A DNA stretch of 64,000 nucleotides from an uncultured Dehalococcoidales bacterium (GCA_964437795.1 CAYTIC010000004.1:3475-67474); one strand, 5' to 3'. Numbered from the stretch's first letter, positions 32,952 through 56,502 are shown. Numbers and translations: made by a program. The notes: generated by a model not told the origin, from the sequence alone.

Positions 32952-33023
32952 GGGATCCTCCTTTATGCAGAATTTGATTGGCCCTTTAAATCAGGCTTGA
33001 TGGAGACGAACAGTGGAGAACAT

Positions 33024-34049: not shown

Positions 34050-34093
34050 TTACCTCCCGGGACCCCATAATCATAGCTTATAATCGAATAAAA

Positions 34094-35344: not shown

Positions 35345-35367
35345 GACAGGGAATTATACATTGATGG

Positions 35368-36663
35368 CTACTTAGCTTCCAATAATCCCATAGCGCGGTC
35401 CACCTCGCGGGCGCGCTGGTAATCGGCGTTGAAGTATTTGGAAGACCACAGGTAGCCAAAGCTACTGAGGAAACCGATGCCGGAGATGACGAGGAATGAT
35501 GTTTGTATGTTAACAGCGTCGGAAATCGCCCCCATCAGTATGGGACCCCACATGCCGCCCAGGATGTAGCCGGTGAGCATATAGAGGCCCATGGCCGTGG
35601 AGCGCTGATAGGCGGGCACTATCTCCTGCACCGCGTTAAGCTGGGCTGCAACAAATGCGGAGGTGAAGAATACGCCGATGGCGAATACCGGCAGCGAAAC
35701 GAAGTAGGTGCCTGCCGCCATGAAAAGGCTTGCCAGCAGCATAGTCACGACGATGACCAGCACTTTGTTACGGGGATTATGCTGTGAGACCTTGTCCGTC
35801 ACCCATCCGCCGAGTGGCATGGCGATGATAGCCGTCAATGCCAGGCCGGCCGAGACTGAGCTGGCCAGCACCGTATCCATGCCCATGCTGCGGTTTAAGA
35901 GCACCGGTACCCAGGGCACATAGCCCAGTATGTAGCACATTTCCAGCGCGATGGTGAGATAGAGGATGGGCAGCGTCTTGATTTTGACGAATTCCTTGAG
36001 GGTGGACCCCAGCGCAGTGCTGCGGGGGACGTCCCCCGCTTTTTGCAGCGCCGATTTATCTATTTTATAGTCCGGCATGAACCAGGCCAGGATGCCAAAG
36101 ATAATGCCGGGGGCAGCCACTGCCATGAACGCCGCCTGCCAGCCAAAGCTCTTGGTGACAAATCCTCCGATGAGGAAGCCGAAAGCCGAGCCAAATGGTA
36201 TGGCAGCCACCCAGATGCCCGTAACCAGTGCGCGCCTGGTCTTGTTGATCATACTGGCTATAAGGGCCATTCCACCCGAGACGAAACTGGCCTCACCCAC
36301 TCCTACCACCGTGCGGGTGGCCAGAAGCTGTCCGAAATTAGTACAGAAGCCGGAAAACAGGCTGGCCACGCTCCAGACAATAGACATCAGCGAGATCATC
36401 CTGGAACGTCTCCAGCGATCGATAAGATAGGACAGCGGCAAGGCGAAGACTGCTACGCCTATAAGTACCACTGACATCAGCCAGCCTACCTCGGTATCGC
36501 TTAAGCCCAGCTCAGCCTTCAAGGCCGGTGTCATGGGGCCGATCACCGACCGCAGCGCGTAGTCCATCATATAGAGGACGAAAAGGACTGATATCGTGTA
36601 CCACACCTGCCACGGTTTGACTTTGATCAGGACATCGCTCTTTTCCGTTTGCCCTATTTTCAT
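35368..36663 (-). CDS. MFS transporter (paralog)
   Basis: AGGAGG RBS; 12-TM MFS. Confidence 0.8.
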   Translation of the reverse strand: MKIGQTEKSDVLIKVKPWQVWYTISVLFVLYMMDYALRSVIGPMTPALKAELGLSDTEVGWLMSVVLIGVAVFALPLSYLIDRWRRSRMISLMSIVWSVASLFSGFCTNFGQLLATRTVVGVGEASFVSGGMALIASMINKTRRALVTGIWVAAIPFGSAFGFLIGGFVTKSFGWQAAFMAVAAPGIIFGILAWFMPDYKIDKSALQKAGDVPRSTALGSTLKEFVKIKTLPILYLTIALEMCYILGYVPWVPVLLNRSMGMDTVLASSVSAGLALTAIIAMPLGGWVTDKVSQHNPRNKVLVIVVTMLLASLFMAAGTYFVSLPVFAIGVFFTSAFVAAQLNAVQEIVPAYQRSTAMGLYMLTGYILGGMWGPILMGAISDAVNIQTSFLVISGIGFLSSFGYLWSSKYFNADYQRAREVDRAMGLLEAK

Positions 36664-36731
36664 CTCAACCTCCTACAATTTTTATAACAACGTTGAATTT
36701 CTGCAGCTCTATATTACAGGAATCTATCGTC

Positions 36732-37925
36732 CTATTTTTTTACGACCGTGGCTGAGCAATTACCCTGTTTGCCGGCATTGACTGTGAAACCTACTTTGGC
36801 TCCATCGACCTGCCTCGGTCCTGAAGCGCCCCTCATCTGCCATGTGAGCTCGCATACCTGTGCCATGGCCTGGGCCGGGATAGCTTCGCCGAAGGAAGCA
36901 CAGCCGCCGCTGGTATTGACCGGCATCCTGCCCCCTATGCCCGTAACGCCTTCCCGCAACAGCTTTTCCGCATCCCCGCGCTTGCATAGTCCGATCTCCT
37001 CATACCAGCCCAGCTCGAAGGCGGAACTGAGGTCATATACTTCCGCCAGGTCCAGGTCTTCGGGCCCGATACCCGCTTCCTCGTAGGCATTTTTAGCCGC
37101 CCGTACACCCATACAGTTATCGAACTCGAGTTCACCTGAATCACTGGCTATATCCAATCCATAGCCTCCGCTTTTGGGATCGGGGTATTTGGGAGTAGCT
37201 ATTCCGACGCTCGCCAACCTCACAGGCTTGCGGGTGTGCTTTTTGGCCGCCTTCATGCTGCTGAGGACGATTGCGGCTGCGCCGTCACTGGTTGCGCACA
37301 GTTCATACAATCGCAGGGGATAAGTTACCATGGGGGATTTGAGCACATCTTCTACGGTAAAAGCTTTTTTAAAGCGCGCCAGGGGATTGAGTGATCCGAA
37401 TTTGCTGTTCTTGACCTTTACCAGGGCAAGGTCGTTTTCGGTCATCCCATAGAGATACATTCTATTTGTAGCCATGAAAGCAAAACCAGTGGGATTTGTC
37501 AGCCCCAGTATCCTGAAACGCTGGGAATCCAGGTCGTTAGGATCATCTTCCCTGGGAGCGGTAACACCAAAAAAACCATCGGGCGAAATGCTGGCTGCGA
37601 CAACAAGGACATAATCGCAAAAGCCCGAGTTGATGTAGGCCTGCGCTGTCTTCAACGCATATCCGCCTGTTGCGCAGGCGTTATATACATTGACTACCGG
37701 TATGCCGTTGTTGCCTATTTTCTGCGATAACCTGCAGCCGGCTAACAGGCCATCGACACCGCTCCAGGGATCCGAACCTGCCACGACAAACTGGATATCT
37801 TTCCACTCCAAGCCGGCATCTTTCAGGGCTTTTTGAGCCACTTCGAGATTCAGCTCCGGAACGCTCTTATCCTTTATTTTTCCCCAGGGATGCATAGCAA
37901 CTCCCAGAATGGCGACTTCATTCAT
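36732..37925 (-). CDS. SCP-x type thiolase (thiolase-like, DUF35-partnered)
   Basis: Thiolase fold without the classical degradative signature; adjacent DUF35 OB-fold partner. Confidence 0.8.
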   Translation of the reverse strand: MNEVAILGVAMHPWGKIKDKSVPELNLEVAQKALKDAGLEWKDIQFVVAGSDPWSGVDGLLAGCRLSQKIGNNGIPVVNVYNACATGGYALKTAQAYINSGFCDYVLVVAASISPDGFFGVTAPREDDPNDLDSQRFRILGLTNPTGFAFMATNRMYLYGMTENDLALVKVKNSKFGSLNPLARFKKAFTVEDVLKSPMVTYPLRLYELCATSDGAAAIVLSSMKAAKKHTRKPVRLASVGIATPKYPDPKSGGYGLDIASDSGELEFDNCMGVRAAKNAYEEAGIGPEDLDLAEVYDLSSAFELGWYEEIGLCKRGDAEKLLREGVTGIGGRMPVNTSGGCASFGEAIPAQAMAQVCELTWQMRGASGPRQVDGAKVGFTVNAGKQGNCSATVVKK

Positions 37926-37966
37926 TATTTCACCTCATTATTTAATGCGGATATTTGGATTGCCCC

Positions 37967-38416
37967 CTATTTGTGAGCAGGCCTGAACTTCCATGCCATG
38001 ACGTCGTTGCCCTGGCTGTCCTCATACAGCTTCTCAATCACGACGTCCATATCCATACCGACCTCCAGATTTTTCTCGTCATAGCCGGAGGAAATCTGGC
38101 CGGTGATGCTGATGCCTTCAGGCAGACTGACCATTCCGACCCCAAAGGGGACGAAAGGATCGGGGGCGTGATACGGCGGTGGCGGCGAAAAATAATTGAC
38201 GGAGTAGGCTTCTAAATTGCCCTTGTTGCTGAGCATTACGGATTCCATGGCCCCATCTTTTTTGCAGTTCGGATTTCGGCATACCTGCGCCGGCGGGAAG
38301 AAATAGCCGCTGCACAAAGAACATTTGCTGGCTATGATGTGAGGCTCCCGGGGTGGCATGGTAAACCAACCCTGGATGGCGGGAACCTGCTGATTCGGTG
38401 CGTCTTTACTGCTCAT
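37967..38416 (-). CDS. DUF35 OB-fold/zinc-ribbon protein (thiolase partner)
   Basis: CSLCSGYFFPPAQVCRNPNC zinc ribbon + OB fold; GGGAGG RBS before ATG 38416. Confidence 0.75.
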   Translation of the reverse strand: MSSKDAPNQQVPAIQGWFTMPPREPHIIASKCSLCSGYFFPPAQVCRNPNCKKDGAMESVMLSNKGNLEAYSVNYFSPPPPYHAPDPFVPFGVGMVSLPEGISITGQISSGYDEKNLEVGMDMDVVIEKLYEDSQGNDVMAWKFRPAHK

Positions 38417-38479
38417 ATACGTCCTCCCTGATCTATATTCCAATGTAGCTAAACACGCATAACAAAAATGTGATCTTTC

Positions 38480-39775
38480 TTATTTCTCGGCCAATAGATA
38501 CTCGTGTTTGACCTTATCCATGTCAGCAATATAAGGCCTGGAAGCCATGAAATAGCACAGGCCGCCCAGGACGCCGCCCAGGGTGGCGATTATCAGTGCA
38601 GTGCCCAGCGCTTGCGCGTCCTGCCCCAGCGCGTTGGAGATGGCGCCGACCAGGTAAGGGCTCCAGCCGCCGCCGAACACGTACATGAAGAAGATCATGG
38701 CGCCCCATACCAGACCTTTCTGGGCTACCGGGGCGACATCCTGCGCCATAGCCATGATGCAGGGGATCGCCATCACGTTTAAAATGCCATAAGTAACGAT
38801 CAAGATCATGCCCATCGGCCCCTTTAACTGTAAAAACAGGGCTGCAGCAAGGAAAAAGGCGCTGAGTATAATGGTGATCGCCGGCACATAGAGCCTGCCC
38901 CTGGGATTTTTCCTGAACCACAGGTCCGCCAGGAATCCGCCCAGCGGCGAACCGATAATGGCAGCCAGGACTATGGGAACAAGTATGCTGTTGGCGGCCT
39001 GCACGTCCACCCCCCAGGCACGTCCGATATAAGCCGGCGACCAGAAGAGGAAGGACATCGACATAATGTTGGCCAGGCCGTAGCCGACGAAGGTCCAGAC
39101 CAGGGTGGGGATTTTAAACAGCCCGACTATTGATCGGCCGAAATCCACCTTAGCACCGGGCGTCTGGTCTGCTTCCACGGTCTTGTAATCTTTCATAAAG
39201 AAGGCCATTACTGCTAGGGCGATGCCCGGTATGGCGAAGATAAAGAACGGCGCCTGCCATCCGTACTGCTTGGCTACAATGCCTCCTGCAAGTGAACCCA
39301 GCGCTATTCCCAGCGGCACCGCCGCGTTGAAGACGCCCATGGCTATGCCGCGCGCCTTTTTGGAGTAAGCTGCGCCGATCATGGCCGCTCCGCCCGGCAC
39401 AAATCCGGCTTCACCCACTCCGACAAGACTGCGAGGGATCAGGAAGCTCCAGAAGTTCCAGGCAAATCCATTGGCGGCCGTGAACATGCTCCAGAGCAGC
39501 GCCATTATGCCGACAGCCTTGCGCCTGCTCCAGCGGTCTATCAGATAGGAAATGGGAAAAGAGAAGACCGCGATGCTCAAAAGGAATACCGTCCCGAGGA
39601 TACCCATCTCACTGTCATTAAGCCCCAGGGCGGCTTTCATGGGCTCTACAACGGCGGCCACGACCTGCCGGTCCATGAAGTTGACCATCAGGAGGAGAGT
39701 ACAGATTATTAGAATATATAGTTTTCCTCCCGCTCCGGCCTTATACTCTTTGGGCGCGCCTCTATCTGTCGACAC
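38480..39775 (-). CDS. MFS transporter (paralog; GTG start)
   Basis: AAGGAGGTG RBS; N-terminus aligns with MFS 6229. Confidence 0.8.
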   Translation of the reverse strand: MSTDRGAPKEYKAGAGGKLYILIICTLLLMVNFMDRQVVAAVVEPMKAALGLNDSEMGILGTVFLLSIAVFSFPISYLIDRWSRRKAVGIMALLWSMFTAANGFAWNFWSFLIPRSLVGVGEAGFVPGGAAMIGAAYSKKARGIAMGVFNAAVPLGIALGSLAGGIVAKQYGWQAPFFIFAIPGIALAVMAFFMKDYKTVEADQTPGAKVDFGRSIVGLFKIPTLVWTFVGYGLANIMSMSFLFWSPAYIGRAWGVDVQAANSILVPIVLAAIIGSPLGGFLADLWFRKNPRGRLYVPAITIILSAFFLAAALFLQLKGPMGMILIVTYGILNVMAIPCIMAMAQDVAPVAQKGLVWGAMIFFMYVFGGGWSPYLVGAISNALGQDAQALGTALIIATLGGVLGGLCYFMASRPYIADMDKVKHEYLLAEK

Positions 39776-39832: not shown

Positions 39833-41191
39833 TTACCAGTCCAGGCCTTTGGATTTGCGGACTTTCCTGTAATGGTCCATGGTCTGTTCGAAGGCCTCTG
39901 CCCTTGCCAGTACCTCCTGGGGATTGAAGACGCGCTTGTCGATGATATCGCCCTCGACCCACAGGCTTGGAACGTCCAATTTCTTGTGGAGGAAATCTTG
40001 TATTGGTCTCAGATTGGAACTGGCTGCACGGCAGGAGATGAGCGGGTGCAGGAAAAAGCCATCGGCACGGTATCCCCTGGCATAATTCAGATAGCACGCT
40101 ACGATGGGATTATTGATGCCGTTCTTCCTGGCATGCTGATGTATATTGAATACGAAATTACGAGAGAGGCGTGCCAGCTTCTCCACTGGATCGCTGATCC
40201 TGCTCAAGTCCGGCGGTTTGGGAGCGTGATAGCCGTAACCCTCGAAGACGAAATTCCAGCCTTTTTCGGCCAGGGCGTCGAAGAACCTGAGGCTGTGCCA
40301 GGGAGGAAGCTCGGCGAAGATCAACCGATATCTTTCGGGATAGTTGATAGCCGCTTCTTTGTTTTTTATCCTCTCCTGTATCTCGGTCAGCATGTCCTGG
40401 TACAGATTGAGCGCTACCTTCATATCGCCGGCGAAGAAAAGCGACGGCGGCATGCTGCTCCAGAAGTCCGTGCTGTGCATGGGCCCGGGTACGGCCTTGC
40501 GGGCCTCGCTGATCAGGGAAACGGTTTCGTGGATCTGAATTGCCAGGCCGATAAGCTCTTCGAACCTGTTCCAGTCCATCTTTTTCTTGAAAAGTTTCTC
40601 CAGGAAAGAGATGTAATCGTTGAGCTCTTTAACCAGAAATTTCACCTGGTACCCTTCGAGATCCTCCTCCGAGCCCTCGGCAGTTCCCATCACCGGCATC
40701 TCAAGGCACCATTGCGGGGCGTCGAAGTACCTGGCCAGCGCCTGAAACCACTTAAAGCGCGCATCGCAAAAGATGCCCGAGCCGAGCAATAGCGATGGCC
40801 TGGCCATGCCGCCCAGCGGGGCATCGGGGGGTATCTTGCCGCCGTTTTCCTTCATCATGCGGTAGGAATAGCCGATCGTGGCCCTGCCGTATCCGCACAT
40901 ATGTGTGGGGAAGCCGTCCGAATCCGAGGCATCGAGGAACGGCTCGGCCGTGCCGGAAGCCGCCAGCAGCGTTGCGTAATTCTCAGGATAGATTATGTTG
41001 AGGTCCATGGCCTTGAGGGGTATATCGCCTTCGAATATAGTGAGCATGGACCATACGGTCGGTTTGCCCTCTTTGCTGGCCTGGAGCGTATTAACATAGT
41101 CCTGCTGTACCAGGTTGCGCAGCGGGTACATGCTCTTCAGCCGGTTTATGGCCCTCTTACCGGTTTTAACCGTAGTTTCTGGTTCACTCAT
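39833..41191 (-). CDS. HGD-D family subunit (benzoyl-CoA reductase B/C / 2-hydroxyacyl-CoA dehydratase component), extra paralog
   Basis: About 80-90% identical to ORF 46697-48058, including identical DNA stretches. Confidence 0.8.
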   Translation of the reverse strand: MSEPETTVKTGKRAINRLKSMYPLRNLVQQDYVNTLQASKEGKPTVWSMLTIFEGDIPLKAMDLNIIYPENYATLLAASGTAEPFLDASDSDGFPTHMCGYGRATIGYSYRMMKENGGKIPPDAPLGGMARPSLLLGSGIFCDARFKWFQALARYFDAPQWCLEMPVMGTAEGSEEDLEGYQVKFLVKELNDYISFLEKLFKKKMDWNRFEELIGLAIQIHETVSLISEARKAVPGPMHSTDFWSSMPPSLFFAGDMKVALNLYQDMLTEIQERIKNKEAAINYPERYRLIFAELPPWHSLRFFDALAEKGWNFVFEGYGYHAPKPPDLSRISDPVEKLARLSRNFVFNIHQHARKNGINNPIVACYLNYARGYRADGFFLHPLISCRAASSNLRPIQDFLHKKLDVPSLWVEGDIIDKRVFNPQEVLARAEAFEQTMDHYRKVRKSKGLDW

Positions 41192-41298
41192 AAAATACAC
41201 TCCCTGCGGAGAAAAGAATTCTCCAGGCGAGAAAGCTGCTGCTCACAGCGCGCAGTGAATATAAAAGCGGATAAAAGACGTAGCTTCTATATCGGCTG

Positions 41299-42858
41299 CT
41301 ATATTATTCTGTTATCTTTGCCCTCCCAGTATTTTTCCTTGACCAGGCGGCGTAATATCTTGCCTGTGGGAGTCATGGGCAGCTCTGTGACGAAGTCCAC
41401 CGTGCGCGGACGTTTATAGCCGGCCAGCTTTCCCTTGGTGAACTCGACGATCTCTTCCTGTGTAGCGCGCATCCCGTCCTTCAGCAGGACCACCGCCTTG
41501 ACCGACTCACCCCAGAATTCATCCGGTACGCCGACGATGGCGACCTCTCTGACGGAAGGATGTGTATAAATGACGTTCTCAACTTCAGTTGGGTAGATGT
41601 TCTCACCGCCGGAGATTATCATGTCGTTTTTACGGTCTACCAGGTACAGGTAATTTTCCTCATCGACATATCCCATATCGCCTACAGCACACCATTCGCC
41701 GCGGAAGGCGGCCTTGGTGGCCTGGGGGTTCTTTAAATACTCTTTAAAAATGTTAATGCCGCGGGTATATATCTCACCTATCTCCCTGGCTGCCATCTCC
41801 TTTCCTTCGGGGTCCAGGATCTTGATCTGCTTTCCGAAAACGGCCTGCCCCACCGATTTCATCTTCCTGATCTGGTCCTCGGGACGCAAAGCAGTTACCA
41901 CCCCCGTCTCTGTGGCGCCGTAGCCTTCGTAAAGCTTGGCGTTCTTAAAAAAGGACAGTATCTCGGTCTTGGTTTTGGCCGATATCGGCGCAGAGGAGGA
42001 GAGCAGAGTTGTCATACTCGAGACATCGTATTTGTTGCGTACCTCTTCGGGTAAAGCCAGGATAATGTTGTACATAGTCGGCACCATGCTGGAGATATTC
42101 ACCTTATACTTATCGATTATCTGCAGGATCTCCTCGCCGTTGAATCCGCGCAGGTGATATATGTGGATGGTCATACCGCTGAGGAACGAGGCCATGACAT
42201 TATTGATGGAATTTGAATGGAAGGTGGGCATGACGATAAGGTTGACCATATATGAGGTTACGAATTCAATATTCATTACCACTGCAGTCTCAACGCCCGT
42301 TTTGTGCAGGGTGACCGCCCCTTTTGGGAAGCCGGTTGTGCCTGATGTATAGCCGATGCACAGGATGTCCTCCGGAACGATTTTAACATCGGGCTCTTCC
42401 GCGGAGCCTTCTTTTACCAGGTCCTGATAAAGGCCGCCCGCATCGCGGAATTTTTTACTCCCCACTACCCAGTATTTATCAACCGGTATTTGTTTGATAT
42501 CCTTAGCCGCTATTTCCATGGTCGGGATGAATTCTTCTCCCAGTATCATGGCGCAGGCATCGGAGTTCTCGACGACAAACTTGATCTCCGGCGCCTGGAA
42601 GCGCCAGTTCACGGGAACCATGATAATACCGGTTTTGGAGCAGGCCATAATTAACTCGACGAACTGATAGCAGTTCATGAGCAATATCCCCAGCCTGTCT
42701 CCCTTCTTTAATCCGCTGGCAAGCAGATTGTTGGCAATGCGGTTAACCCGGCGGTTGAATTCCTCGTATGTAAAAGAGGCATCGTCACCGACGATAGCAT
42801 TGCGCTTGGGATACCTGTTGACACTGTTGAGCAGAAGTTCGCCTACTACCAGATTCAT
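41299..42858 (-). CDS. AMP-dependent acyl-/aryl-CoA ligase
   Basis: YTSGTTGFPKG AMP-binding motif; AGGAGGAGG RBS. Confidence 0.85.
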   Translation of the reverse strand: MNLVVGELLLNSVNRYPKRNAIVGDDASFTYEEFNRRVNRIANNLLASGLKKGDRLGILLMNCYQFVELIMACSKTGIIMVPVNWRFQAPEIKFVVENSDACAMILGEEFIPTMEIAAKDIKQIPVDKYWVVGSKKFRDAGGLYQDLVKEGSAEEPDVKIVPEDILCIGYTSGTTGFPKGAVTLHKTGVETAVVMNIEFVTSYMVNLIVMPTFHSNSINNVMASFLSGMTIHIYHLRGFNGEEILQIIDKYKVNISSMVPTMYNIILALPEEVRNKYDVSSMTTLLSSSAPISAKTKTEILSFFKNAKLYEGYGATETGVVTALRPEDQIRKMKSVGQAVFGKQIKILDPEGKEMAAREIGEIYTRGINIFKEYLKNPQATKAAFRGEWCAVGDMGYVDEENYLYLVDRKNDMIISGGENIYPTEVENVIYTHPSVREVAIVGVPDEFWGESVKAVVLLKDGMRATQEEIVEFTKGKLAGYKRPRTVDFVTELPMTPTGKILRRLVKEKYWEGKDNRII

Positions 42859-42926
42859 ATTTGTCCTCCTCCTAAATTGTGTGAATAAAATGATCGGAAT
42901 TTGAGCCGGATTTCGCGTCGCCGATG

Positions 42927-43490
42927 TTATTTCTGTTTTTTACTATCAGTCGATTCATCAAAATCGGTGATTACTTGTATAGTGCTCTCTGTCCACTCCA
43001 ATAAAGCTTCGTACTGTGCAAGGACCCTGTCCACAACCAGCGTCCAGTAAAGCTTATCCAACGGTGCTGCCAATCCCCACAGATCTGATTCAATGGCGGG
43101 CTTGGCCATTGACTTATATTTCTCAATCTCGCCTTTCAATTTCTTAGAATATTTCTTAATGTTGTTAATCATGTCTTTTTTTGGTGCGCGGCTTCCATAC
43201 CATAGCTTTAATAGAAGTGTTTCACGCGGGACAACAAATTCAGGAGGCTCTTTGAGCCATCTCGTCAATTCCGTTTTACCCTTATCGGTGATGGTAAATA
43301 CGTTTTTGTATGGAAGCTTCTCCTGGTCGACCCTTTCACATTCGATTAATCCTTCCTCAGTCAGCATGTTCAATTTGCGATAAATCTGACTCTGGGAGGG
43401 CCGCAGGGGTTCGAAAAACATTTTTGATAAATCGTAACCTGTTTTCGGCCCGTAACTTAAAAATCCCAGTAGACCGTATTTCAATGACAT
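42927..43490 (-). CDS. PadR family transcriptional regulator (with C-terminal extension)
   Basis: N-terminal wHTH typical of PadR (GLLGFLSYGPKTGYDLSK…). Confidence 0.8.
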   Translation of the reverse strand: MSLKYGLLGFLSYGPKTGYDLSKMFFEPLRPSQSQIYRKLNMLTEEGLIECERVDQEKLPYKNVFTITDKGKTELTRWLKEPPEFVVPRETLLLKLWYGSRAPKKDMINNIKKYSKKLKGEIEKYKSMAKPAIESDLWGLAAPLDKLYWTLVVDRVLAQYEALLEWTESTIQVITDFDESTDSKKQK

Positions 43491-43756
43491 AACAATAAGC
43501 CCCTATAACTAACTCATTTATTAGCGAATGGCATCCGCCCAGGGGGATATATGCCCAGGTCAATATACGCCGGGGCATAAGATAACATATGGTTGAAATG
43601 CTTGTCAACCCCAATTATTTCGAAATAAAAGGGTGATTAAGAGAGGTGTTAATCAGGTGCTTGTCATGAATATGGAATGGAGCATCCCGTTCATAGTTGG
43701 GACAAACTACATATTGAGAGGAAAGAAAAGTTCATGGAAAATGGGCGTGTCCGGTA

Positions 43757-44536
43757 TCAGCTGGAATGGTTTTTTGCGATAACTGCCGCTCCCAGTGCGG
43801 CCATGAGGCGTGGGTTGTCGGGCACCAGGGCTTTGACGGCGAGCTTTTCTTCGATGGCCTGCACCAGGCCGATATCGAGCGCCCCGCCGCCGATGACGGC
43901 AAAATCCTTCTCCAGGGCAACACCGCGTGACATGCCGCTGATCTTATCGGCGATAGAACGATGTATGCCGGACAGAATGTCCTCGGGTTTATCGCCCTGA
44001 GAGATGCGGGTGATGACCTCGGTTTCCAGGAACACCGTGCATGAGGTGGAGAAGCTGGAAGGCCTGGTAGACTTTAGCGAGAGCGGCCCGATCTCATCGA
44101 TGCCGATCTGCAGTATGCGGGCCACGACCTGCAGCAGGCGGGCGCTGCCGGTGGCGCATATCTCGGAGACATTGAAGTTAATTACGTGCCCTTCGCCGTC
44201 CATGGTAATCACCTGGCTGCCCTGTCCGCCGATATCGATGATTGTGCGAACAGTGGGGAAAGTCAGGTTGACGCCCCGGGCATCGCAGATGATCACGCCG
44301 TGATAGCTGTCGGCGTTGGCGTTTCTCCCTCCAATGCCGGTAGCTGCGCTGGCTGTAATGGCGGAAGGTTGAAGGCCGGCCCGTTTGAGGGCTTCAGCTT
44401 TGACGGCCGCAGATGTCGTGGCATAGTTGGTGCCGGAGGGTATCACAATAGAACCCACGATGTTCTTCCGGCCGTCTATTATGACGGCTTTGCTGGCGGC
44501 CGCACCGATGTCTATGCCGAGGTAGAATTCAGTCAT
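43757..44536 (-). CDS. BcrAD/BadFG/HgdC-family ATPase (activator/electron-transfer subunit)
   Basis: Acetate/sugar-kinase ASKHA fold (LGIDIGAAASKAV…). Confidence 0.8.
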   Translation of the reverse strand: MTEFYLGIDIGAAASKAVIIDGRKNIVGSIVIPSGTNYATTSAAVKAEALKRAGLQPSAITASAATGIGGRNANADSYHGVIICDARGVNLTFPTVRTIIDIGGQGSQVITMDGEGHVINFNVSEICATGSARLLQVVARILQIGIDEIGPLSLKSTRPSSFSTSCTVFLETEVITRISQGDKPEDILSGIHRSIADKISGMSRGVALEKDFAVIGGGALDIGLVQAIEEKLAVKALVPDNPRLMAALGAAVIAKNHSS

Positions 44537-44592
44537 TTTCAATATCCGTCGAGTCTGTCATTTTGCTTATGTGCAGCATAAAAGGTTGCGCC

Positions 44593-45474
44593 TTACGCGG
44601 CCGGCTTTTTCTCCGTGAATTCAATATATGCTTCGCTGAGCTGTTTTTTCTCCATTTTGTAGCGGCCGTCCTGCACCAGTTTAAAGGCCTCGTCTCTTGC
44701 CAGTATGGCGGCGCCCAGGGCGCCGGTGATGAGCGGTTCCTCCGGCACAAGCACCGGCATGCCCAGCACGGTCTCCATGGCTTTGACCATGCCAGCATTC
44801 TTGGCCACCCCACCTGTAAAGACTACGGGCGGCTCGACTTTGAGCTGCCGGGCCAGCTTGACCACACGGGTGGTAACGGCTATGTAGACGCCGGCCAGTA
44901 TATCCGGCAGCGGCTGACCCTCGGAGAGACGCGAGATGATCTCCTGCTGGGCGAAGATAGTGCAAAGGCTGTTTATCTTAACGGGCGTATCGCTCTGCAA
45001 CGATACCTGCCCCATCTCGTTAAGCCCCAGCCCCAGCGTCTCAGCAGCCACCTCCAGGAACCTGCCGGTGCCGGCTGCGCACTTATCGTTGGTAAGGAAG
45101 TCGGTCAGCCGGCCTCCCTTGATCTTGAGTACCTTGGCGTCCTGGCCGCCGATGTCGATGGCGGTGCGAACGTCGGGGAAAAGCGAGGAAACTCCTTTAG
45201 CGTGGCAGGTGAGCTCGGTGACCTGTTTGTCGGCGAATGGAACATTGACACGGCCGTAGCCCGTGGAGATGATATAGGCTATTTGATCGAGCGTGACACC
45301 GGATTTAATGAGCACGTCCTCCATAACCCGGTTGGCGCGCCGGCGGTGCTCGGCGCCGGTCTGGCCGACCACGTAGCCGAGCATCTGTCCTGCGGCGTCT
45401 ACCACAGCTGCCTTGGACATGGTAGAGCCGATATCGATGCCGGCGAAAAAGAGTTTAGAAGCTTCGTATTCCAT
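44593..45474 (-). CDS. BcrAD/BadFG/HgdC-family ATPase, second copy
   Basis: FAGIDIGSTMSKAAV… ASKHA fold; paired with the previous ATPase. Confidence 0.8.
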   Translation of the reverse strand: MEYEASKLFFAGIDIGSTMSKAAVVDAAGQMLGYVVGQTGAEHRRRANRVMEDVLIKSGVTLDQIAYIISTGYGRVNVPFADKQVTELTCHAKGVSSLFPDVRTAIDIGGQDAKVLKIKGGRLTDFLTNDKCAAGTGRFLEVAAETLGLGLNEMGQVSLQSDTPVKINSLCTIFAQQEIISRLSEGQPLPDILAGVYIAVTTRVVKLARQLKVEPPVVFTGGVAKNAGMVKAMETVLGMPVLVPEEPLITGALGAAILARDEAFKLVQDGRYKMEKKQLSEAYIEFTEKKPAA

Positions 45475-45493
45475 GCGGGACTGCTGCTTTACC

Positions 45494-46666
45494 TCAGCCC
45501 AGGGTCTCCACGAAGGCCTCTACCCTCGTCTTGATAGGGGCCAGCGACCGCTCGCTGTAGTCATGCTCGATGTATATGCTGGGTATGCCCAGAGTATCAA
45601 GGTAGTGCCGCAGGTTGGGCACCTCGTATCCGTGCGTATCGCAGTATTTGACGCTCTGCAGTATGGCCCCGTTCACGTGCCAGTCGGTAATGGCCTTCTT
45701 GATATAGTTAAACCTGCTGTCGAGGTCCTTATCATAGTTCCTGGCAGTCTCATGGTGTTCAGTGTCACGATAGGTGCGCGGGCATTTGAGATCGACCAGG
45801 TATCTCTGTGCCAGGGCGTGCAGGTTGTAAGGGGCCTTAACGTCTGCCCAGAAGGCCCTGGTGCCGACGCAGGTGTCATCGACCACAACGCTGGCATTAG
45901 CGCTCTCTATGAGCTCGTAAAGCGACGTGTTGTCGAAAACAGGTCCCCACACCAGCAGGCGCGCCTTTTTCTTGGACGGCTTTATGCTTCGTCCCTTGAT
46001 CTCCTTGATGACGTCTTCCAGGAGCTCGTTGCCCTCATCCACGGGCAGGCTGAAAAGCGCTACCAGCACCTCGATATTTTCCATCGATGTCATGAGGGGC
46101 GGGTCTGATTTTCGCAGGTCGTAGAGCTCCCTTACAAGCTTACGTTGTTTATTGTGCAGCTCGCAGGCTTTTTTCAGCTTATCATCGGTCAGCTTTTCAC
46201 CGGCGAACTCCTCGAGGTGGCGTTTGAAGGAATTAATCTGGCCCTCGAAATAGTCGACAGCCGGCGCATGGTCGGTGTGCGGCACATCTATCAGGTGAGT
46301 GAAGGGCGCATCCTTGACATAATCACGCCACGATATGACCAGGGTCATGCCGATATCGCAGGTATGCGCTCCGACGATGCCGTCCAGGAAGTTAAATTTA
46401 CCTTTCATACCGAGGTCGATGATGCTGCGCAGGAACGGGCAGACCACCGTGGTTGATACCTGGTCGGCCGCTGTGATGGGCTCGCTCATATCACCGAAGA
46501 CGCGGAAAGGCACCATGCCCAGCGCGCTGATAATCTCGACAGGCGGGTAGAGGCAAATATAGCCGATGACCTTCTTGCCGGCCTTGCGCAGCTCGCGCAC
46601 GCGCATCCCCCTGTCCGCGTAGAGTTCGTGTGCCCTGGAAAGCCCCTTAGTTGTAGCTATTACCAT
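45494..46666 (-). CDS. HGD-D family subunit (BcrC/BadD/HgdB-like)
   Basis: HGD-D family sequence, Cys-containing. Confidence 0.8.
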   Translation of the reverse strand: MVIATTKGLSRAHELYADRGMRVRELRKAGKKVIGYICLYPPVEIISALGMVPFRVFGDMSEPITAADQVSTTVVCPFLRSIIDLGMKGKFNFLDGIVGAHTCDIGMTLVISWRDYVKDAPFTHLIDVPHTDHAPAVDYFEGQINSFKRHLEEFAGEKLTDDKLKKACELHNKQRKLVRELYDLRKSDPPLMTSMENIEVLVALFSLPVDEGNELLEDVIKEIKGRSIKPSKKKARLLVWGPVFDNTSLYELIESANASVVVDDTCVGTRAFWADVKAPYNLHALAQRYLVDLKCPRTYRDTEHHETARNYDKDLDSRFNYIKKAITDWHVNGAILQSVKYCDTHGYEVPNLRHYLDTLGIPSIYIEHDYSERSLAPIKTRVEAFVETLG

Positions 46667-46696
46667 CTCAATCTCCCGGTTTTTATTATTCTTCGT

Positions 46697-48058
46697 TTAC
46701 CAGTCCAAACCCTTCGATTTTCGAACCTTCCTGTAGTGGTCCATGGTCTGCTCGAAGGCCTCTGCCCTTGCCAGCACCTCCTGGGGATTGAAGACACGCT
46801 TGTCGATGATATCGCCCTCGACCCACAGGCTGGGTATATCCAGTGTATCCTGCTCGAAGTGCTGCACCGTCCTGAGGCTGCAGCTGGCAGCGCGGCAGGA
46901 GATGAGCGGGTGCATGAAAAAGCCATCGGCCTTAAAGCCCCGGGCTATCTTGAGGTAAGTTTCAACGACTGGATTGGAGACATTGTCCTTCTTGGCCTCG
47001 GGGAAGACATTGAACCAGAAATTGCGTGAGAAGCGCGCCAGCTTCTCGCAGGGATCGCTAATCTTGCTCAGGTCGAGCGGCCTGGTGTTGTGATAACCGA
47101 AGCTCTCGAAGACGAAATTCCATCCTTTCTCCGCCAGGTTGTCAAAAAACTTCAGGCTGTGCCAGGGAGGGAGCTCCGCGAAGATCAGGCGGTATCTTTC
47201 GGGGTAGTTGATGCCCGATTCCTTGACCTTGACGCGCTCCTGCACCTCGGCCAGCATGTCCTGGTACAGCTTGAGAGAGACGTTCATATCGCCGGCGAAA
47301 AAGAGGGCGGGCGGCATGCTGCTCCAGAAGTCCGTGCTGTGCATGGGCCCGGGGATGGCCTTGCGGGCCTCGCTGATCTGGTAGGTGGTCTCGTGTATCT
47401 TGGTGGCCAGGACGATCAACTCCTCCAGCCTGGCCCAGTCCATCTTCTTTTTCAGCAGCTTTTCCAGGAATGCGATAAAGTCCTTTATCTCTTTGGTCAG
47501 GAATTTGACCTGGTACTCTTCAAGGTCGGGCTCATTGCCTTCGAAAGTGGCCATCATGGGCATTTCGAGGCACCATTCAGGAGCATCGAAGTATCTTGCC
47601 AGCGCTTGAAACCACTTGAAACGGGCGTCGCAGATAATGCCCGATCCGAGCAGCAGCGCCGGTTTGGCCATGCCGCCCAGCGGGGCATCGGGGGGTATCT
47701 TGCCGCCGTTTTCCTTCATCATGCGGTAGGAATAGCCGATCGTGGCCCTGCCGTAGCCGCACATATGAGTGGGGAAGCCATCGGAATCCGAGGCATCCAG
47801 GAACGGCTCGGCTGCGCCGGAGGCCGCCAGCAAAGTGGCGTAGTTCTCAGGGTAAACGATATTCAGCCCCATGGCCTTGAGCGGGAGATCGCCCTCCCAG
47901 TAATTGAGCATGGACCATACGGTCGGCTTGCCCTCATTGCTGGCCTGGAGTGTATCAACGTAGTCCTGCTGCACGAGGTTGCGCAGCGGATAAACGCTCT
48001 TAAGGCGGTTAATGGCTCTTTTCTTCTCGGTCTTGGCGGGAGTTGCGGTTTCGCTCAT
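46697..48058 (-). CDS. HGD-D family subunit (BcrB/BadE/HgdA-like)
   Basis: Paralog of 39833-41191. Confidence 0.8.
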   Translation of the reverse strand: MSETATPAKTEKKRAINRLKSVYPLRNLVQQDYVDTLQASNEGKPTVWSMLNYWEGDLPLKAMGLNIVYPENYATLLAASGAAEPFLDASDSDGFPTHMCGYGRATIGYSYRMMKENGGKIPPDAPLGGMAKPALLLGSGIICDARFKWFQALARYFDAPEWCLEMPMMATFEGNEPDLEEYQVKFLTKEIKDFIAFLEKLLKKKMDWARLEELIVLATKIHETTYQISEARKAIPGPMHSTDFWSSMPPALFFAGDMNVSLKLYQDMLAEVQERVKVKESGINYPERYRLIFAELPPWHSLKFFDNLAEKGWNFVFESFGYHNTRPLDLSKISDPCEKLARFSRNFWFNVFPEAKKDNVSNPVVETYLKIARGFKADGFFMHPLISCRAASCSLRTVQHFEQDTLDIPSLWVEGDIIDKRVFNPQEVLARAEAFEQTMDHYRKVRKSKGLDW

Positions 48059-48185
48059 CTTTCACTCCTTATATGTTTTCAATGCGGAATATAAAAAGAT
48101 CGGCAGACTTAAATATTAGAATATTGCCGGTCTTAATGCAAAGACATCTGTGCACCGTTTCACTCATAGGTTAGCCGTTCCTTTC

Positions 48186-49703
48186 TCAGCTTATCTGACC
48201 GGTGTCCAGCATTTTGACCAATTCCTTTTTTAGTATCTTGCCCACAGGGCTGCGCGGCACCTGCTGCAGTATATAGACACGCCGGGGAATCTTGAAGCGC
48301 GCCAGCTTCTCGCTTAAATAATCGGTCATTTCCTTTTCGGTTAATGTGGCGCCGGGCCGCGGCACTACGATGGCTACGGGTACTTCCCCCAGCCGCACAT
48401 CCCTCTGTGGGACCAGTACTGCGTCGGCCACTGCAGGGTGCTTGTACATGATCTCCTCCACCTCGCGGGGGAAGACCTTCTCGCCTCCCACGTTGATAAG
48501 CTCCTTCTTGCGGTCGACCATGAAGAAGTAGCCGTCCTTATCGTAATATCCCATATCTCCCGTGTGCAGCCACCCTCCGCGCAGGGCCTCGGCCGTCTCC
48601 TTGGGCTTTTTATAGTAGCCTTTCATCACCAGCGGCCCCTGGATGACCAGCTCACCTACCTCCCCCGTTCCCAGCAGCTTACCCGACTCGTCCATTGCGC
48701 CCACCTTCACGCCGGGGTAGGCCAGCCCGACGCTGCCCTCCTTGTAGGTAAGGTCCGAGCGCTGCATTGTCGCCGAGGCGGAGCATTCGGTCAGGCCCCA
48801 GGCCTCGAGGATCTTGATGTTAAGCGCGCTGGAGGCGTCCTTCATGAGCTGGGCCGGCATGGCCGAAGCGCCCGAGATGCCGATGCGCAGCGACGAAAGG
48901 TTATACTTGCTGCGGTCCGGATGGTTTATCAACATGAAATACATGGCTACTACCATGGGTATGAAGGTGATCTTATGTTTCTCGATCTGCTCGAATATCT
49001 CGACGGGATTAAAGGGGTCAAGCAGTACGAAGGAGGAACCGGTCACCAGCGAGCAGAGAATCACGGTGATACCGAAGCCGTGGAAGGCCGGCACGACCAT
49101 CAGGGCGCGGTCATTGTCTCCCAGCTTGAGCAGTTTGACGATAATGTCGGCGTGGAAGAACAGGTTGGCGTGGGTCAGCATGGTGCCCTTGGGCTCGCCG
49201 GTAGTGCCCGAAGTATAGAGGATCTCGACCACATCGTCTTCCTTGCAGAGGGCTTTAAAAGGAGTGGACGGGGCCTCCGCTTCGAGCTTTGAGAACTCCA
49301 ACCCCTCGCGGTAGGCGCCGTTTACGATCAGGTGTTTGAAGAGGGGAGGCTTGTTTGCGATTTTGCTGTAGTGCTCGGCGAAGGCCGGATTTGCTACCAG
49401 CGCCACCGCATCGCTGTCACGCAGCAGATACTCCAGTTCGCGCTCCTTATAAAATATGTTGACCGGCACGGCCACTGCTCCCAGGTAGGCGCAGGCGAAA
49501 TAGGTCACGATGAACTCGGGGCAGTTGTTGAGCATGATGGCTACCTTGTCGTCGGGCTTGATGCCGAGACCGTGCAGGGAGTGTGCCAACCTCTGTGCCC
49601 TGGCCAGAAGCTGGCTGTATGTTACAGGCTGGTCCTTGAATATGAGCGCTGGTTTGTTTCCAATCTTGGAGGCTCTGGCCTCCAACATGCCGGGCAGATG
49701 CAT
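48186..49703 (-). CDS. AMP-dependent acyl-/aryl-CoA ligase
   Basis: YTSGTTGEPKG motif; AGGAGG RBS. Confidence 0.85.
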   Translation of the reverse strand: MHLPGMLEARASKIGNKPALIFKDQPVTYSQLLARAQRLAHSLHGLGIKPDDKVAIMLNNCPEFIVTYFACAYLGAVAVPVNIFYKERELEYLLRDSDAVALVANPAFAEHYSKIANKPPLFKHLIVNGAYREGLEFSKLEAEAPSTPFKALCKEDDVVEILYTSGTTGEPKGTMLTHANLFFHADIIVKLLKLGDNDRALMVVPAFHGFGITVILCSLVTGSSFVLLDPFNPVEIFEQIEKHKITFIPMVVAMYFMLINHPDRSKYNLSSLRIGISGASAMPAQLMKDASSALNIKILEAWGLTECSASATMQRSDLTYKEGSVGLAYPGVKVGAMDESGKLLGTGEVGELVIQGPLVMKGYYKKPKETAEALRGGWLHTGDMGYYDKDGYFFMVDRKKELINVGGEKVFPREVEEIMYKHPAVADAVLVPQRDVRLGEVPVAIVVPRPGATLTEKEMTDYLSEKLARFKIPRRVYILQQVPRSPVGKILKKELVKMLDTGQIS

Positions 49704-49888
49704 ATCAACCTCCTGTCTCGTTTATACGGACCAATTCACGCGGTCTTTTGCTTAATAAAAATACGATCCCCAAGGGATTTCAACCGGGGCAGTTGAGCCC
49801 GCCGTAAATGGTAAATCATCGCCAGATTAAATGTAAAGGCAGCCATTGAAACACGCATAATCATCGCCGGCCCCCCGTTAACAGATAC

Positions 49889-49916
49889 TTGACTATTGAT
49901 ACCCTTCTGTTAGAAT
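49889..49916 (+). promoter_or_regulatory. candidate promoter TTGACT-N16-TAGAAT for the downstream ligase/RdhA/phosphoesterase cluster
   Basis: -35 49889-49894, -10 49911-49916; a GACTGTCAGTC palindrome just downstream. Confidence 0.4.
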
Positions 49917-50033
49917 AAGCGACTGTCAGTCAGTTATCATCAAGATTTGTTTGGAGGGAGCCGCGGGCCAAGCAGCATTCTCACCCGATATCAAACGGGT
50001 AAATAACAGTGAATATCATAAGGAGGTGCAGGA

Positions 50034-51632
50034 ATGAACCTGGCCAACCTTGTAGTTGAAGGGATCAGGAAATTCGGGGAATACGAGTGCTGTTATTTCG
50101 AGGGGAAATGGTACACCAATGTGGAACTGGACGATATGTCCAGCCGCCTGGGCAATGCGTTGAAATCGATCGGTGTCGGCAGGGGAGACCGAGTGGTCAC
50201 GCAATTGCCGAACTGCCCGGAGATCGGGTGTACGTTCAATGCCGTATATAAGATAGGCGCCGTTGCCGTGCCTATGAATCCCATACTTCGCCCGGACCAA
50301 ATATCCCATATCTACAGGAACTGCGGCGCCGGGGTAACCATCACGACATCCGATTATCTACCCTGGATCAGGGAGGCGCAGAAAAATGCCCCGGGGCTCA
50401 AGCAGATCATTTTAGTTGACAGGGATGATGAGCCGGGCACACTCTCTTTTAAAAAGTTGCTGGAAAGCTCCAGCAGCGAGCTGAAGGTGGAGGACATGGA
50501 TGGCGAGGACCTGGCTGCGCTTATCTATACGTCCGGCACCACCGGCAATCCCAAGGGAGTTATGCACACCCACTACTCACTGTGGATCAACGCGGTGTGC
50601 TTCGCCGATTTTACCGCAATGTGCTCGCCCACAACCCTGCGTGATGTCCGCCGGGACCTCAACAAGCACACGTACAAGATCGAGGAGACCATGCAGGAAG
50701 TTACCGGACACGACCGCAACGTGCTGTTCCTGGCGGTCCTGCCGCTGTCCCACTCGTACGGGTTGTCCTTCATGAATTTCGGCAGCCTGGTCGGGGCCAG
50801 GTACGTAGTGATGAAGTGGTGGAACCCCGCGGGCGCACTCAAAATCATCGAAGATATGCGCGTAGGATATATTGCGCTGGTGCCGACCATGTACGTTCAC
50901 CTGCTTGACCAGCCCGACTTCGACAGGTATGATCTCTCATCGCTCCAGTACTGCAACTCGGGGGCCGCAGCGCTGGACACAGGCATCGCAATGAAGTGGA
51001 AGGAGAAGACGGGAGTTCATATCCATGAGGGTTGGGGCATGACGGAATCCGGCGCGACCACTTCGGGAAATCCCACCACGTGCCCACCCAAGATCGGTTC
51101 CATCGGCGTTAACATGCTCAAGTGCAACACGATGAAAGTATTCGACAACGAGGACCACGAGTTGCCGCCGGAAAGCATCGGCGAGCTGGTTATCAAGGGC
51201 CCTACGGTAATGAAGGGCTACTGGAATATGCCCGATGAAACCGCGGAGGCGCTCAAGAACGGCTGGCTGCATACCGGGGATATCGGGTACATGGATAAGG
51301 ACGGCTATTTCTATATTACCGACCGAAAAAAGGACATAATCATCCGCGGCGGGGAAAATGTATCGCCCAGAGAAGTTGAAGATGTTGTCTGTCAGCATCC
51401 CAGGGTGCTTGAAGCGGGTTGCGTGGGAATCAAGGACCGGGTATACGGGGAGGAGATAAAGGTGTTCGTCGTGCTCAGGGAGGGGGAACAGTGCAGCGAG
51501 GCAGAGATTATTGAGCATTGCAGGAAGCATTTACCCTCTTTTAAAACACCCGGCAAGGTCCAGTTCATAAGTTCGCTGCCCAAGAATATTCTGGGGAAGA
51601 TATTGAGGGCCGACCTGCGCAAGGCGGGATAG
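50034..51632 (+). CDS. AMP-dependent acyl-/aryl-CoA ligase
   Basis: YTSGTTGNPKG motif; AAGGAGGTG RBS. Confidence 0.85.
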   Translation: MNLANLVVEGIRKFGEYECCYFEGKWYTNVELDDMSSRLGNALKSIGVGRGDRVVTQLPNCPEIGCTFNAVYKIGAVAVPMNPILRPDQISHIYRNCGAGVTITTSDYLPWIREAQKNAPGLKQIILVDRDDEPGTLSFKKLLESSSSELKVEDMDGEDLAALIYTSGTTGNPKGVMHTHYSLWINAVCFADFTAMCSPTTLRDVRRDLNKHTYKIEETMQEVTGHDRNVLFLAVLPLSHSYGLSFMNFGSLVGARYVVMKWWNPAGALKIIEDMRVGYIALVPTMYVHLLDQPDFDRYDLSSLQYCNSGAAALDTGIAMKWKEKTGVHIHEGWGMTESGATTSGNPTTCPPKIGSIGVNMLKCNTMKVFDNEDHELPPESIGELVIKGPTVMKGYWNMPDETAEALKNGWLHTGDIGYMDKDGYFYITDRKKDIIIRGGENVSPREVEDVVCQHPRVLEAGCVGIKDRVYGEEIKVFVVLREGEQCSEAEIIEHCRKHLPSFKTPGKVQFISSLPKNILGKILRADLRKAG

Positions 51633-51676
51633 GCGCTCTTCCCGGATGGGGAGAAATATGTAGCGGGAGGCAGGAT

Positions 51677-52681: not shown

Positions 52682-52712
52682 ATATAATGGCAATCACCAC
52701 GTATATGCGGTA

Positions 52713-52769
52713 TTGACAGGCCGCTGATATATGTTAGAATGTGGTCTGTAACTGACCGTCGGTCATTTA
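52713..52769 (+). promoter_or_regulatory. promoter TTGACA-N16-TAGAAT plus palindromic operator TAACTGACCG-T-CGGTCATTTA upstream of tetR
   Basis: -35 52713-52718, -10 52735-52740; 21-bp imperfect palindrome 52749-52769 at the expected TSS. Confidence 0.45.
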
Positions 52770-52777
52770 TAAAAACC

Positions 52778-53371: not shown

Positions 53372-53395
53372 AAACCGGGATACGAGGAGGACTTC

Positions 53396-54988: not shown

Positions 54989-55027
54989 ATTTCTATATAG
55001 AGGAAGATTAGTTCAGGAGGATGATGA

Positions 55028-55579: not shown

Positions 55580-55631
55580 AGCGGCATTGTCCATGTGAAC
55601 AGGTAACAAATTGTTGAAGGGGAATGAGATC

Positions 55632-56465: not shown

Positions 56466-56502
56466 ACCTCGATACTGCCTGTTTTGATTTAAGGGGTAAA
56501 AC

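Follow-up and report, generated by a model that had tools for sequence, protein, structure and literature searches.

Two paralogous catalytic subunit genes in an uncultured Dehalococcoidales bacterium: an old duplication, short gene conversion tracts and a possible alternative specificity subunit

The benzoyl-coenzyme A (CoA) reductase BzdNOPQ of Aromatoleum (PDB 8S02; PMC11971306) consists of an α subunit that holds a [4Fe-4S] cluster on three Cys residues, a β subunit with the six Cys residues of an [8Fe-9S] double cubane, and two different ATPases of the BcrAD/BadFG type. Genes for the same set of parts, likewise with an adjacent CoA ligase, are found in a 64,000-nucleotide stretch of DNA (hereafter the window) from an uncultured Dehalococcoidales bacterium (GCA_964437795.1 CAYTIC010000004.1:3475-67474). 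The window also carries an orphan paralog of the α gene with a ligase of its own, whereas no second orphan BzdO with its own ligase has been described for BzdNOPQ. We refer to the orphan as αA and to the operon copy as αB:

39833-41191, minus strand: αA, 452 aa, orphan paralog of the catalytic [4Fe-4S] α subunit, HGD-D family, HadB/BzdO/MbdO-like
46697-48058, minus strand: αB, 453 aa, operon copy of the catalytic α subunit

The best explanation overall, to which we assign a probability of about 0.7, is that αA and αB are old paralogs between which gene conversion has occurred, and that αA is an alternative specificity subunit. Both open reading frames, to which a preliminary description of this DNA had drawn attention, are real and lie on the minus strand. 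αA starts at an ATG, and a GTG upstream, at 41200, is likewise open.

The activator of the dehydratases is a homodimer of a single gene product. In HadBC/HadI, the (R)-2-hydroxyisocaproyl-CoA dehydratase of Clostridioides difficile (PDB 3O3M), HadB is the best match of the α subunit (αB against 3o3m_A, E=1e-27, 100 bits) and has in common with it the YPEN motif, the three Cys residues and Pfam family PF06050. HadC, however, lacks the double-cubane Cys positions that the β subunit encoded in the window keeps, and here two different ATPase genes are present. The 3-methylbenzoyl-CoA reductase MbdONQP (PDB 9G87) is a substrate-variant relative of benzoyl-CoA reductase; its α subunit aligns with αB over nearly the full length (9g87_A, E=1e-15, 60 bits), including an SCR motif at the third Cys. 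In that system the new specificity resides in an entire second enzyme of four subunits, whereas in the window the α gene alone is duplicated. Despite the likeness in architecture, αB scores just 47 bits against BzdO (8s02_A, E=2e-11), and BzdO His131 and the pocket residues Ser44-Ala45-Trp46 are replaced by Arg146 and by N-Y-W or T-I-F, respectively.

Relatives were collected in a scan with one genome per species, which gave 42 loci, all from metagenome-assembled genomes (MAGs) of Dehalococcoidia/Chloroflexota; 26 full-length α copies were aligned in register. These loci and the ones added later are numbered with the prefix L. The roles of BzdO residues (Cys ligands, Glu65, His131 and pocket) are taken from PMC11971306. 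Residues C101, C143 and C389 align with the three Cys ligands of the catalytic [4Fe-4S] cluster (BzdO Cys95/128/380), and E71 of the YPEN motif aligns with BzdO Glu65 and also with HadB and MbdO; all four are invariant across the 26 copies. At the position of BzdO His131, which is catalytic and lies next to the cluster-bound water (PMC11971306), all copies have Arg146 (CDARFKW) and in this residue differ from BzdO. Both proteins belong to PF06050 (αA 140.5 bits, αB 144.3 bits, β 284.5 bits; cutoff 28.4). Their scores against more specific models are low: TIGR03191, αB 63.8 and αA 60.9 bits (cutoff 449); TIGR02260, αB 59.2 and αA 63.6 bits (cutoff 487); HadB equivalog NF052455, 111 bits each (cutoff 750). 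Since these scores fall far below the BzdO, BcrB and HadB equivalog cutoffs, the lineage is best regarded as uncharacterised, neither a benzoyl-CoA reductase nor a known dehydratase. As judged from sequence, αA and αB are HadB/BzdO-like [4Fe-4S] subunits of an uncharacterised member of the class I benzoyl-CoA reductase/2-hydroxyacyl-CoA dehydratase family. The matches to the PDB entries also establish their fold.

The predicted partners of αB are encoded directly downstream of it:

45494-46666, minus strand: β subunit, BzdN-like (PDB BzdN 8s02_B, E=2e-49, 172 bits)
44593-45474, minus strand: ATPase subunit 1, BcrAD_BadFG family, BzdQ-like (PF01869 208 bits; TIGR00241 267 bits, cutoff 125)
43757-44542, minus strand: ATPase subunit 2, BcrAD_BadFG family (PF01869 151 bits; TIGR00241 175 bits, cutoff 125)

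In pairwise alignment six Cys residues of β coincide with those of BzdN, and two of them, at the DDxC and CP positions, have no counterpart in HadC. It scores 208 bits against the NCBIfam double_cubane model and 180 bits against bzdN, both under the cutoff. The β subunit thus probably carries a double-cubane electron-storage cluster, and its BzdN-like Cys set leans towards reductase chemistry. The two ATPase subunits are 35% identical to each other and adjoin αBβ, not αA. The 64-kb window contains no further α, β or ATPase gene, so that β is single there.

Age of the αA/αB duplication

The αA and αB proteins are identical at 363/453 positions (80%, BLASTP) with one single-residue gap, at the low end of the 80-90% given in the preliminary description, and the genes are 79.4% identical as DNA. 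They form direct repeats on the minus strand, 6,864 bp from start to start, and are separated, as had been stated, by an intergenic gap of 5.5 kb. It is also true that αA does not adjoin the ATPase genes, but it belongs to the same co-directional cluster and lies 2.5 kb downstream of them. A pairwise DNA alignment of the genes and their flanks, which the preliminary description had called for, revealed tracts of identity and confined the homology to the borders of the coding sequences, the 400 nt on either side being unrelated. Long identical stretches are present in both genes, as had been claimed: the longest perfect run is 91 nt in full, and the runs ranked next are 44 and 35 nt. A 90-mer quoted as an example occurs exactly twice, at 40802-40891 and 47666-47755, with 0 occurrences expected by chance. 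The 3' ends, which had been described as identical, are so as protein (the last 45 aa), but as DNA they carry ~12 synonymous differences in that stretch.

A neighbour-joining tree of the 26 copies resolved an A clade (the window, L001, L017, L019, L021 and L022, with L045 added later), a B clade and further operon-type copies, here called C-type. The A and B clades are reciprocally monophyletic, and A/B orthologs occur in at least seven species-level Dehalococcoidia genomes; the αA orthologs (L001, L017, L019, L021, L022, L045) are 90-93% identical. In the three genomes that have both copies on one contig, the synonymous divergence (dS) of A from B amounts to 0.97-1.10, compared with 0.48-0.75 between orthologs. 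Because dS(A,B) of ~1.0 exceeds the ortholog values and the clades are separate, the duplication must predate these species, and αA and αB are old paralogs. The ratio of nonsynonymous to synonymous divergence (dN/dS) is 0.04-0.13 throughout and 0.05-0.09 among the αA orthologs, showing that both copies are under purifying selection.

These data do not bear out the recent duplication put forward in the preliminary description. Were the genes products of a recent tandem or segmental duplication that is still diverging, the identical stretches would be remains of the original identity, and the 80% overall amino acid identity and the location on the same strand of one cluster could be read in that way. 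However, the homology is restricted to the coding sequences with unrelated flanks, the accompanying ligases are just 32% identical, dS is ~1.0, and separate A and B clades exist in at least seven species-level genomes; moreover, the contig L043 (see below) shows that the longest tract was not identical in a recent ancestor. Such an origin has practically no probability in our estimation, and the neighbour-joining tree together with L043 refutes it.

One codon close to the N-terminus (αA codon 11, window ~41159-41161) is absent from αA of the window and of L043 and present in all other A, B and C copies, and serves as a lineage marker common to these two.

Short conversion tracts from αB into αA

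The segments at issue are the following:

40801-40891, minus strand: tract 1 recipient in αA (gene nt 304-394, codons 102-131), 0/91 differences to αB and to αB of L043
47665-47755, minus strand: tract 1 donor in αB, identical in the window and in L043 αB
39888-39968, minus strand: tract 2 recipient in αA (gene nt 1227-1307), B-like at diagnostic sites
46752-46832, minus strand: tract 2 donor in αB, 79/81 identical to αA

The longest run of identical codons between αA and αB is 30. When synonymous differences were reshuffled only among degenerate codons with identical amino acids, the mean was 10.7 and the maximum 28 in 20,000 shuffles. In a concordance test on 782 family-polymorphic sites, the longest concordant run of each A×B pair was compared with that in permuted site orders. 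For the window pair the longest such run covers 42 sites (gene nt 306-394), a length matched in 0/10,000 permutations. The L001 pair has a 29-site run (nt 686-725, p ~5e-4), although, as a point against reading it as conversion, it sits in a generally conserved stretch; the L022 pair has a 24-site run (nt 82-122, p ~3e-3), and against it stands that it fails Bonferroni correction for 54 pairs (p ~0.003 × 54). More weight attaches to the ranking than to the L001 and L022 p-values: the three same-genome pairs (window, L001, L022) take ranks 1-3 of the 54 A×B pairs, each with its run elsewhere in the gene.

Tract 1 is also exceptional in its distances. Over gene nt 301-390 (distances taken in 90-nt intervals), the two window paralogs are 0.01 apart, whereas αA is 0.11 from its closest ortholog and αB 0.07 from its own. 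Across codons 101-131 the proportion of synonymous differences (pS) is 0.045 for the window pair, while cross-genome A×B pairs have a mean of 0.40 and a minimum of 0.24. Outside the tract, every diagnostic site but one has the A state in window αA as far as gene nt 1205. Between gene nt 162 and 394 there are no clade-fixed A/B differences, so strict diagnostic sites cannot polarise tract 1.

Polarity is provided instead by L043, an independent metagenome contig that is 93.3% identical to window positions 40278-54564 (14.3 kb) and has the same gene order. It was the single match among the metagenome contigs scanned with the tract, and the exact 90-mer was seen in αA, αB and L043 αB only. The tract in L043 αB is identical to that in window αB (0/91 differences), whereas L043 αA and αB differ at 9/91 sites, two of which alter an amino acid. 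At all nine of these sites window αA has the B state; outside the tract, window αA and L043 αA differ by 4.4%. The converted sequence in αA has at least 6/91 differences to the B copies of other species' genomes, and each window paralog differs in the tract from every ortholog in other species' genomes, the αB tract being unchanged in L043 alone. Since L043 keeps an unconverted αA together with an identical αB tract, αB was the donor and αA the recipient, in an event after the split from L043. We conclude from this comparison that tract 1 represents a very recent transfer of 75-91 bp from αB to αA that left αB itself unchanged.

Could the identity instead reflect constraint on the nucleotide sequence near the first Cys ligand, such as codon bias, mRNA structure or an embedded element, with no conversion at all? 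The segment is conserved as protein family-wide, and the lack of clade-fixed A/B differences over gene nt 162-394 would fit. The same segment, however, has 6-15 nt differences (median 11) in every cross-genome A×B pair except that of window αA with the near-clonal L043 αB, and the cross-genome mean pS in it is 0.40. Identity of the tract is clearly not required, because L043 αA differs at nine sites, two of them amino-acid-changing, and we consider such constraint very improbable as the cause.

Tract 2 bears the marks of an earlier conversion event. Over gene nt 1227-1310, window αA has 2 differences to L043 αB, 4 to window αB and 10-15 to the other A copies; it carries bases specific to the window/L043 αB lineage at nt 1290 and 1296 and B states at the diagnostic sites 1229, 1282 and 1283. 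In the interval nt 1231-1320 the window paralogs are 0.03 apart, with the nearest orthologs at 0.09 (αA) and 0.06 (αB). The two αA/αB mismatches in tract 2, at gene nt 1263 and 1284, are both private changes of window αB relative to L043 αB. Because window αB changed at these two positions afterwards, tract 2 must be older than tract 1. In this ~80-bp tract, too, αB overwrote αA without itself changing.

The most divergent stretch of the two genes covers αA codons ~320-400 (39990-40235) and αB 46860-47100, with a distance of 0.40-0.43. There αA is closer than αB to C-type operon copies such as L014. Either fast evolution of αB or an older exchange that produced mosaic genes would account for this.

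The perfect tracts might also be an artefact of assembly, in which a short-read assembler threaded αB k-mers through αA or merged strain variants. The window apparently comes from a metagenome, as do its relatives, every one of which is a MAG or metagenome contig, and paralogs with common identical stretches of 20-40 nt tangle de Bruijn graphs. A further point on that side, which weighs against conversion, is that the tract in window αA is without an independent replicate; exact-protein look-ups of αA (with both starts) and of αB in public assemblies gave no match. On the other hand, a patch of this kind requires two path switches within ~100 nt with both flanks remaining A-type, the gene order matches at least five independent assemblies, and excess identity within a genome is seen at other positions in L001 and L022 as well. 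Tract 2, which predates the private mutations of window αB, is better explained by an old biological event than by a graph error. Taken together, these points leave an artefact with a small share of the probability. Mis-assembly of a single gene, which the preliminary description had considered as a source of error, is excluded by the two-copy order in the independent assemblies L001, L022, L043 and L045; L042 covers the arrangement partly, from β to ligase 2.

Gene conversion, which the preliminary description had read from the patchy identity, is therefore upheld in a narrower form, as short non-reciprocal αB-to-αA tracts polarised by L043. Conversion between bacterial paralogs is documented for rRNA operons (PMC8022953) and for antigen families of Mycobacterium tuberculosis (PMC12046097). 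As in those cases, copying is non-reciprocal between dispersed repeats, and the paralogs are locally closer than orthologs. The αA/αB tracts differ in being very short (~80-90 bp) and in lying between genes with dS ~1 that show no overall concerted evolution and keep their clade-specific sites. The pair is a clean, polarised short-tract example and not a new phenomenon. Mechanistically, RecA-type homologous recombination between the direct repeats, which lie 6.9 kb apart, could have produced the tracts, with resolution into short patches of heteroduplex. Occasional conversion would then be filtered by selection, such that the shared parts are homogenised and the pocket positions never.

Pocket residues, the αA module and subunit sharing

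Clade-specific residues are distributed unequally, with 17 positions specific to A and 2 specific to B. One of the A-specific positions falls in a predicted pocket triplet:

41033-41041, minus strand: αA pocket triplet T-I-F, corresponding to N-Y-W of αB at 47897-47905 and aligned with BzdO Ser44-Ala45-Trp46

The triplet is N-Y-W in 19/20 operon-type α subunits (T-Y-W in L027), T-I-F in six A copies and T-I-W in the A copy of L045. The A-specific positions at or near the active site are 53, in the triplet, 142 (I to F), directly before Cys143, and 393 and 394, after Cys389. On this alignment αA appears as the derived copy, with substitutions next to cluster ligands and at pocket positions.

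The arrangement of the cluster sets αA apart as well. In the order of transcription, on the minus strand, the genes are CoA ligase 1, αB, β, ATPase 1, ATPase 2, PadR, CoA ligase 2, αA, MFS1 and the genes downstream:

48186-49703, minus strand: CoA ligase 1, directly upstream of αB, AMP-binding and AMP-binding_C domains (NF004837 510 bits, above cutoff)
43540-43610, minus strand: promoter-like/operator-like block upstream of PadR, conserved non-coding
42927-43490, minus strand: PadR-family regulator heading the αA module (Pfam PF03551 and PF10400)
41299-42858, minus strand: CoA ligase 2, directly upstream of αA, AMP-binding domains
38480-39775, minus strand: MFS transporter MFS1, downstream of αA (Pfam)
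37967-38443, minus strand: DUF35/ChsH2-like protein (Pfam)
36732-37925, minus strand: SCP-x-type thiolase-like protein (Pfam)
35368-36663, minus strand: second MFS transporter, MFS2 (Pfam)
34094-35344, minus strand: HemN-like radical SAM protein (Pfam)
33024-34049, minus strand: 341-aa protein with no Pfam, NCBIfam or PDB sequence match
32082-32951, minus strand: enoyl-CoA hydratase (Pfam)
32082-39775, minus strand: downstream genes of the αA module as a whole, MFS1 to enoyl-CoA hydratase, order kept in L017, L019 and L045

The unit to which αB belongs is complete, with CoA ligase 1, the BzdN-like β and both ATPases; across loci the typical unit is α-β-ATPase 1-ATPase 2. The conserved orphan αA is part of a second unit, made up of PadR, CoA ligase 2, αA, an MFS transporter, DUF35/thiolase-like genes and others. 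The two ligases are only 32% identical. Among the ligase models NF004837 alone passes its cutoff, and this generic subfamily model gives no substrate specificity. The order PadR-ligase 2-αA is kept in L001, L021, L022, L045 and L046, and in L043 up to a truncated αA; L042 shows PadR-ligase 2, its contig stopping ahead of αA. Wherever a contig extends upstream, ligase 2 precedes αA and PadR precedes ligase 2, while MFS and DUF35/thiolase-like genes follow αA. In every locus examined αA is without a β or ATPase gene of its own, and the αBβ-ATPase unit lies upstream of αA wherever upstream sequence exists, including L045 with five inserted genes.

In the spacer before PadR, the best sigma-70-like match of the region is TTGACA-18-TATCTT with a TG. 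The TTGACA is followed by TGTTATCTTAT and then by two GCATATAT repeats; this block is kept in eight loci in which the surrounding spacer is unalignable, even where the upstream neighbour differs. A hairpin, GGTTGACAAGCATTTCAACC, overlaps the -35 hexamer. In the window, a search for palindromes in the region of the PadR promoter found nothing above chance, and the block emerged from aligned upstream regions. We propose it as a candidate promoter and PadR operator. The promoter-like match and the conservation of the block in eight loci suggest that the αA module is separately regulated.

Other loci show how α and β genes can be combined. On an unrelated contig, L044:8682-15380 (Logan SRR16297628), genes in the order α-α-β-α come after those for a TRAP transporter (DctPQM) and a family III CoA-transferase. 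The three α subunits are 58-67% identical, each has a different pocket triplet, and there is a single β; the contig ends before ATPase genes could appear. L016:9691-12252, from the same MAG (R125_62) as L001, and L027:10001-12558 hold αβ pairs without ATPase genes within 10 kb on either side, which suggests that ATPase modules are common to several αβ cores in these genomes. Because of the conserved linkage, the purifying selection, the separate ligase, transporter and regulator, the pocket changes, the α-α-β-α order in L044 and the ATPase-less pairs in L016 and L027, we favour a modular enzyme. As an alternative subunit, αA would combine with the single β and the ATPase pair encoded upstream and confer specificity for another acyl- or aryl-CoA, the product of ligase 2. 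The preliminary description had suggested a specificity variant that may swap into the complex. This is plausible and fits everything found, although it remains inferential in that the binding of αA to β is a prediction.

Several observations weigh against this interpretation. The role of conversion in partner compatibility is drawn from only four tracts. The α subunits score higher against HadB than against BzdO and have Arg in place of the catalytic His131, and the reaction may be either a reduction or a dehydration. αA may also form homodimers, as double-cubane cluster proteins do, or have as its partner a β whose gene lies beyond the 64-kb window. This last point can be framed as an explanation in its own right, in which αA functions without sharing the β or the ATPases of αB, as a homodimer, alone or with partners elsewhere, and its linkage to the αB operon is historical. 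The archetypal members of the family, the double-cubane cluster proteins, are homodimeric (PMC11971306), the αA module has its own promoter block and regulator, and only 64 kb of the genome is visible. Yet αA has retained all α-type features and gained no β-type Cys set; no β or ATPase gene stands beside it in any locus, while the αBβ-ATPase unit is upstream wherever visible; and in L044 three α genes surround one β. We judge an independent αA unlikely but a serious contender, with a chance well above that of the artefact considered earlier.

Extending the modular reading, one electron-activating core (double-cubane β and ATPase heterodimer) might serve interchangeable α subunits, each with its own CoA-activating enzyme, transporter and regulator; αA and αB, and the three α subunits of L044, would be instances. 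In such a plug-in system selection would protect the pocket, and conversion from the operon copy would maintain the fit of the spare α where it docks to the core. We offer this full scheme tentatively, as somewhat more probably wrong than right.

Neighbouring genes and implications for the family

A homolog of the 341-aa protein lies directly after ATPase 2 in the operon-type loci L005, L007, L014, L018, L026, L033 and L038, and the protein is apparently kept as a partner of the four-gene unit. In L045:1904-7368 and L046:772-3014, the genes between ATPase 2 and PadR encode a B12-binding protein, a 374-aa unknown protein, an MFS transporter and two URO-D-family proteins. We take this set to resemble a corrinoid-dependent O-demethylase system, presumably a hint at methoxylated aromatic acids as substrates of the cluster.

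At window 50034-53371 (plus strand) lies the gene of a third CoA ligase of the AMP-binding type, transcribed divergently from ligase 1, with which it has 33% identity. It is followed by a 334-aa protein without a family match and a TetR regulator, an arrangement kept in L001, L022, L040 and L043. An MFS transporter at 6187-7527 (plus strand) is 49% identical to the one downstream of αA and represents a further paralog ~31 kb away. Directly next to the catabolic cluster, at 26058-32071, is a signalling cluster for four FHA-domain proteins, a PP2C phosphatase, a Ser/Thr kinase and an FHA/Trans_reg_C regulator; L045 likewise ends with a gene of the FHA/Trans_reg_C type. A group at 53396-60880 (plus strand) encodes two type I phosphodiesterase/sulfatase-like proteins together with one of the phosphotriesterase family, and seems unrelated to αA/αB.

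Homologs in the family number at least 766, and public annotations of αA/αB-related proteins are generic. In the accessible literature, which is limited, searches on benzoyl-CoA reductase-like enzymes and on paralogous or orphan subunits in Dehalococcoidia returned generic metagenome annotations or nothing, and no orphan α with its own ligase is described there.

Class I benzoyl-CoA reductases and 2-hydroxyacyl-CoA dehydratases catalyse reductions and dehydrations that are among the hardest in anaerobic carbon turnover, and Dehalococcoidia abound in the sediments of peat, lakes and aquifers, which are also the source of the related MAGs. The occurrence of 80-90-bp tracts between paralogs with saturated synonymous divergence calls for caution in phylogenies and in the assembly of such families. 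If one core does serve alternative α subunits, metagenomic tallies of 'bcr-like' genes would give a false picture of how many enzymes are present and of the range of their substrates. In that case αA and αB would offer a natural experiment on specificity determinants, with 17 residues, several of them aligned to the BzdO pocket, as candidates. A plug-in α would represent a route for widening substrate range that is undescribed for class I benzoyl-CoA reductases or 2-hydroxyacyl-CoA dehydratases, in which new specificities come with complete extra enzymes.

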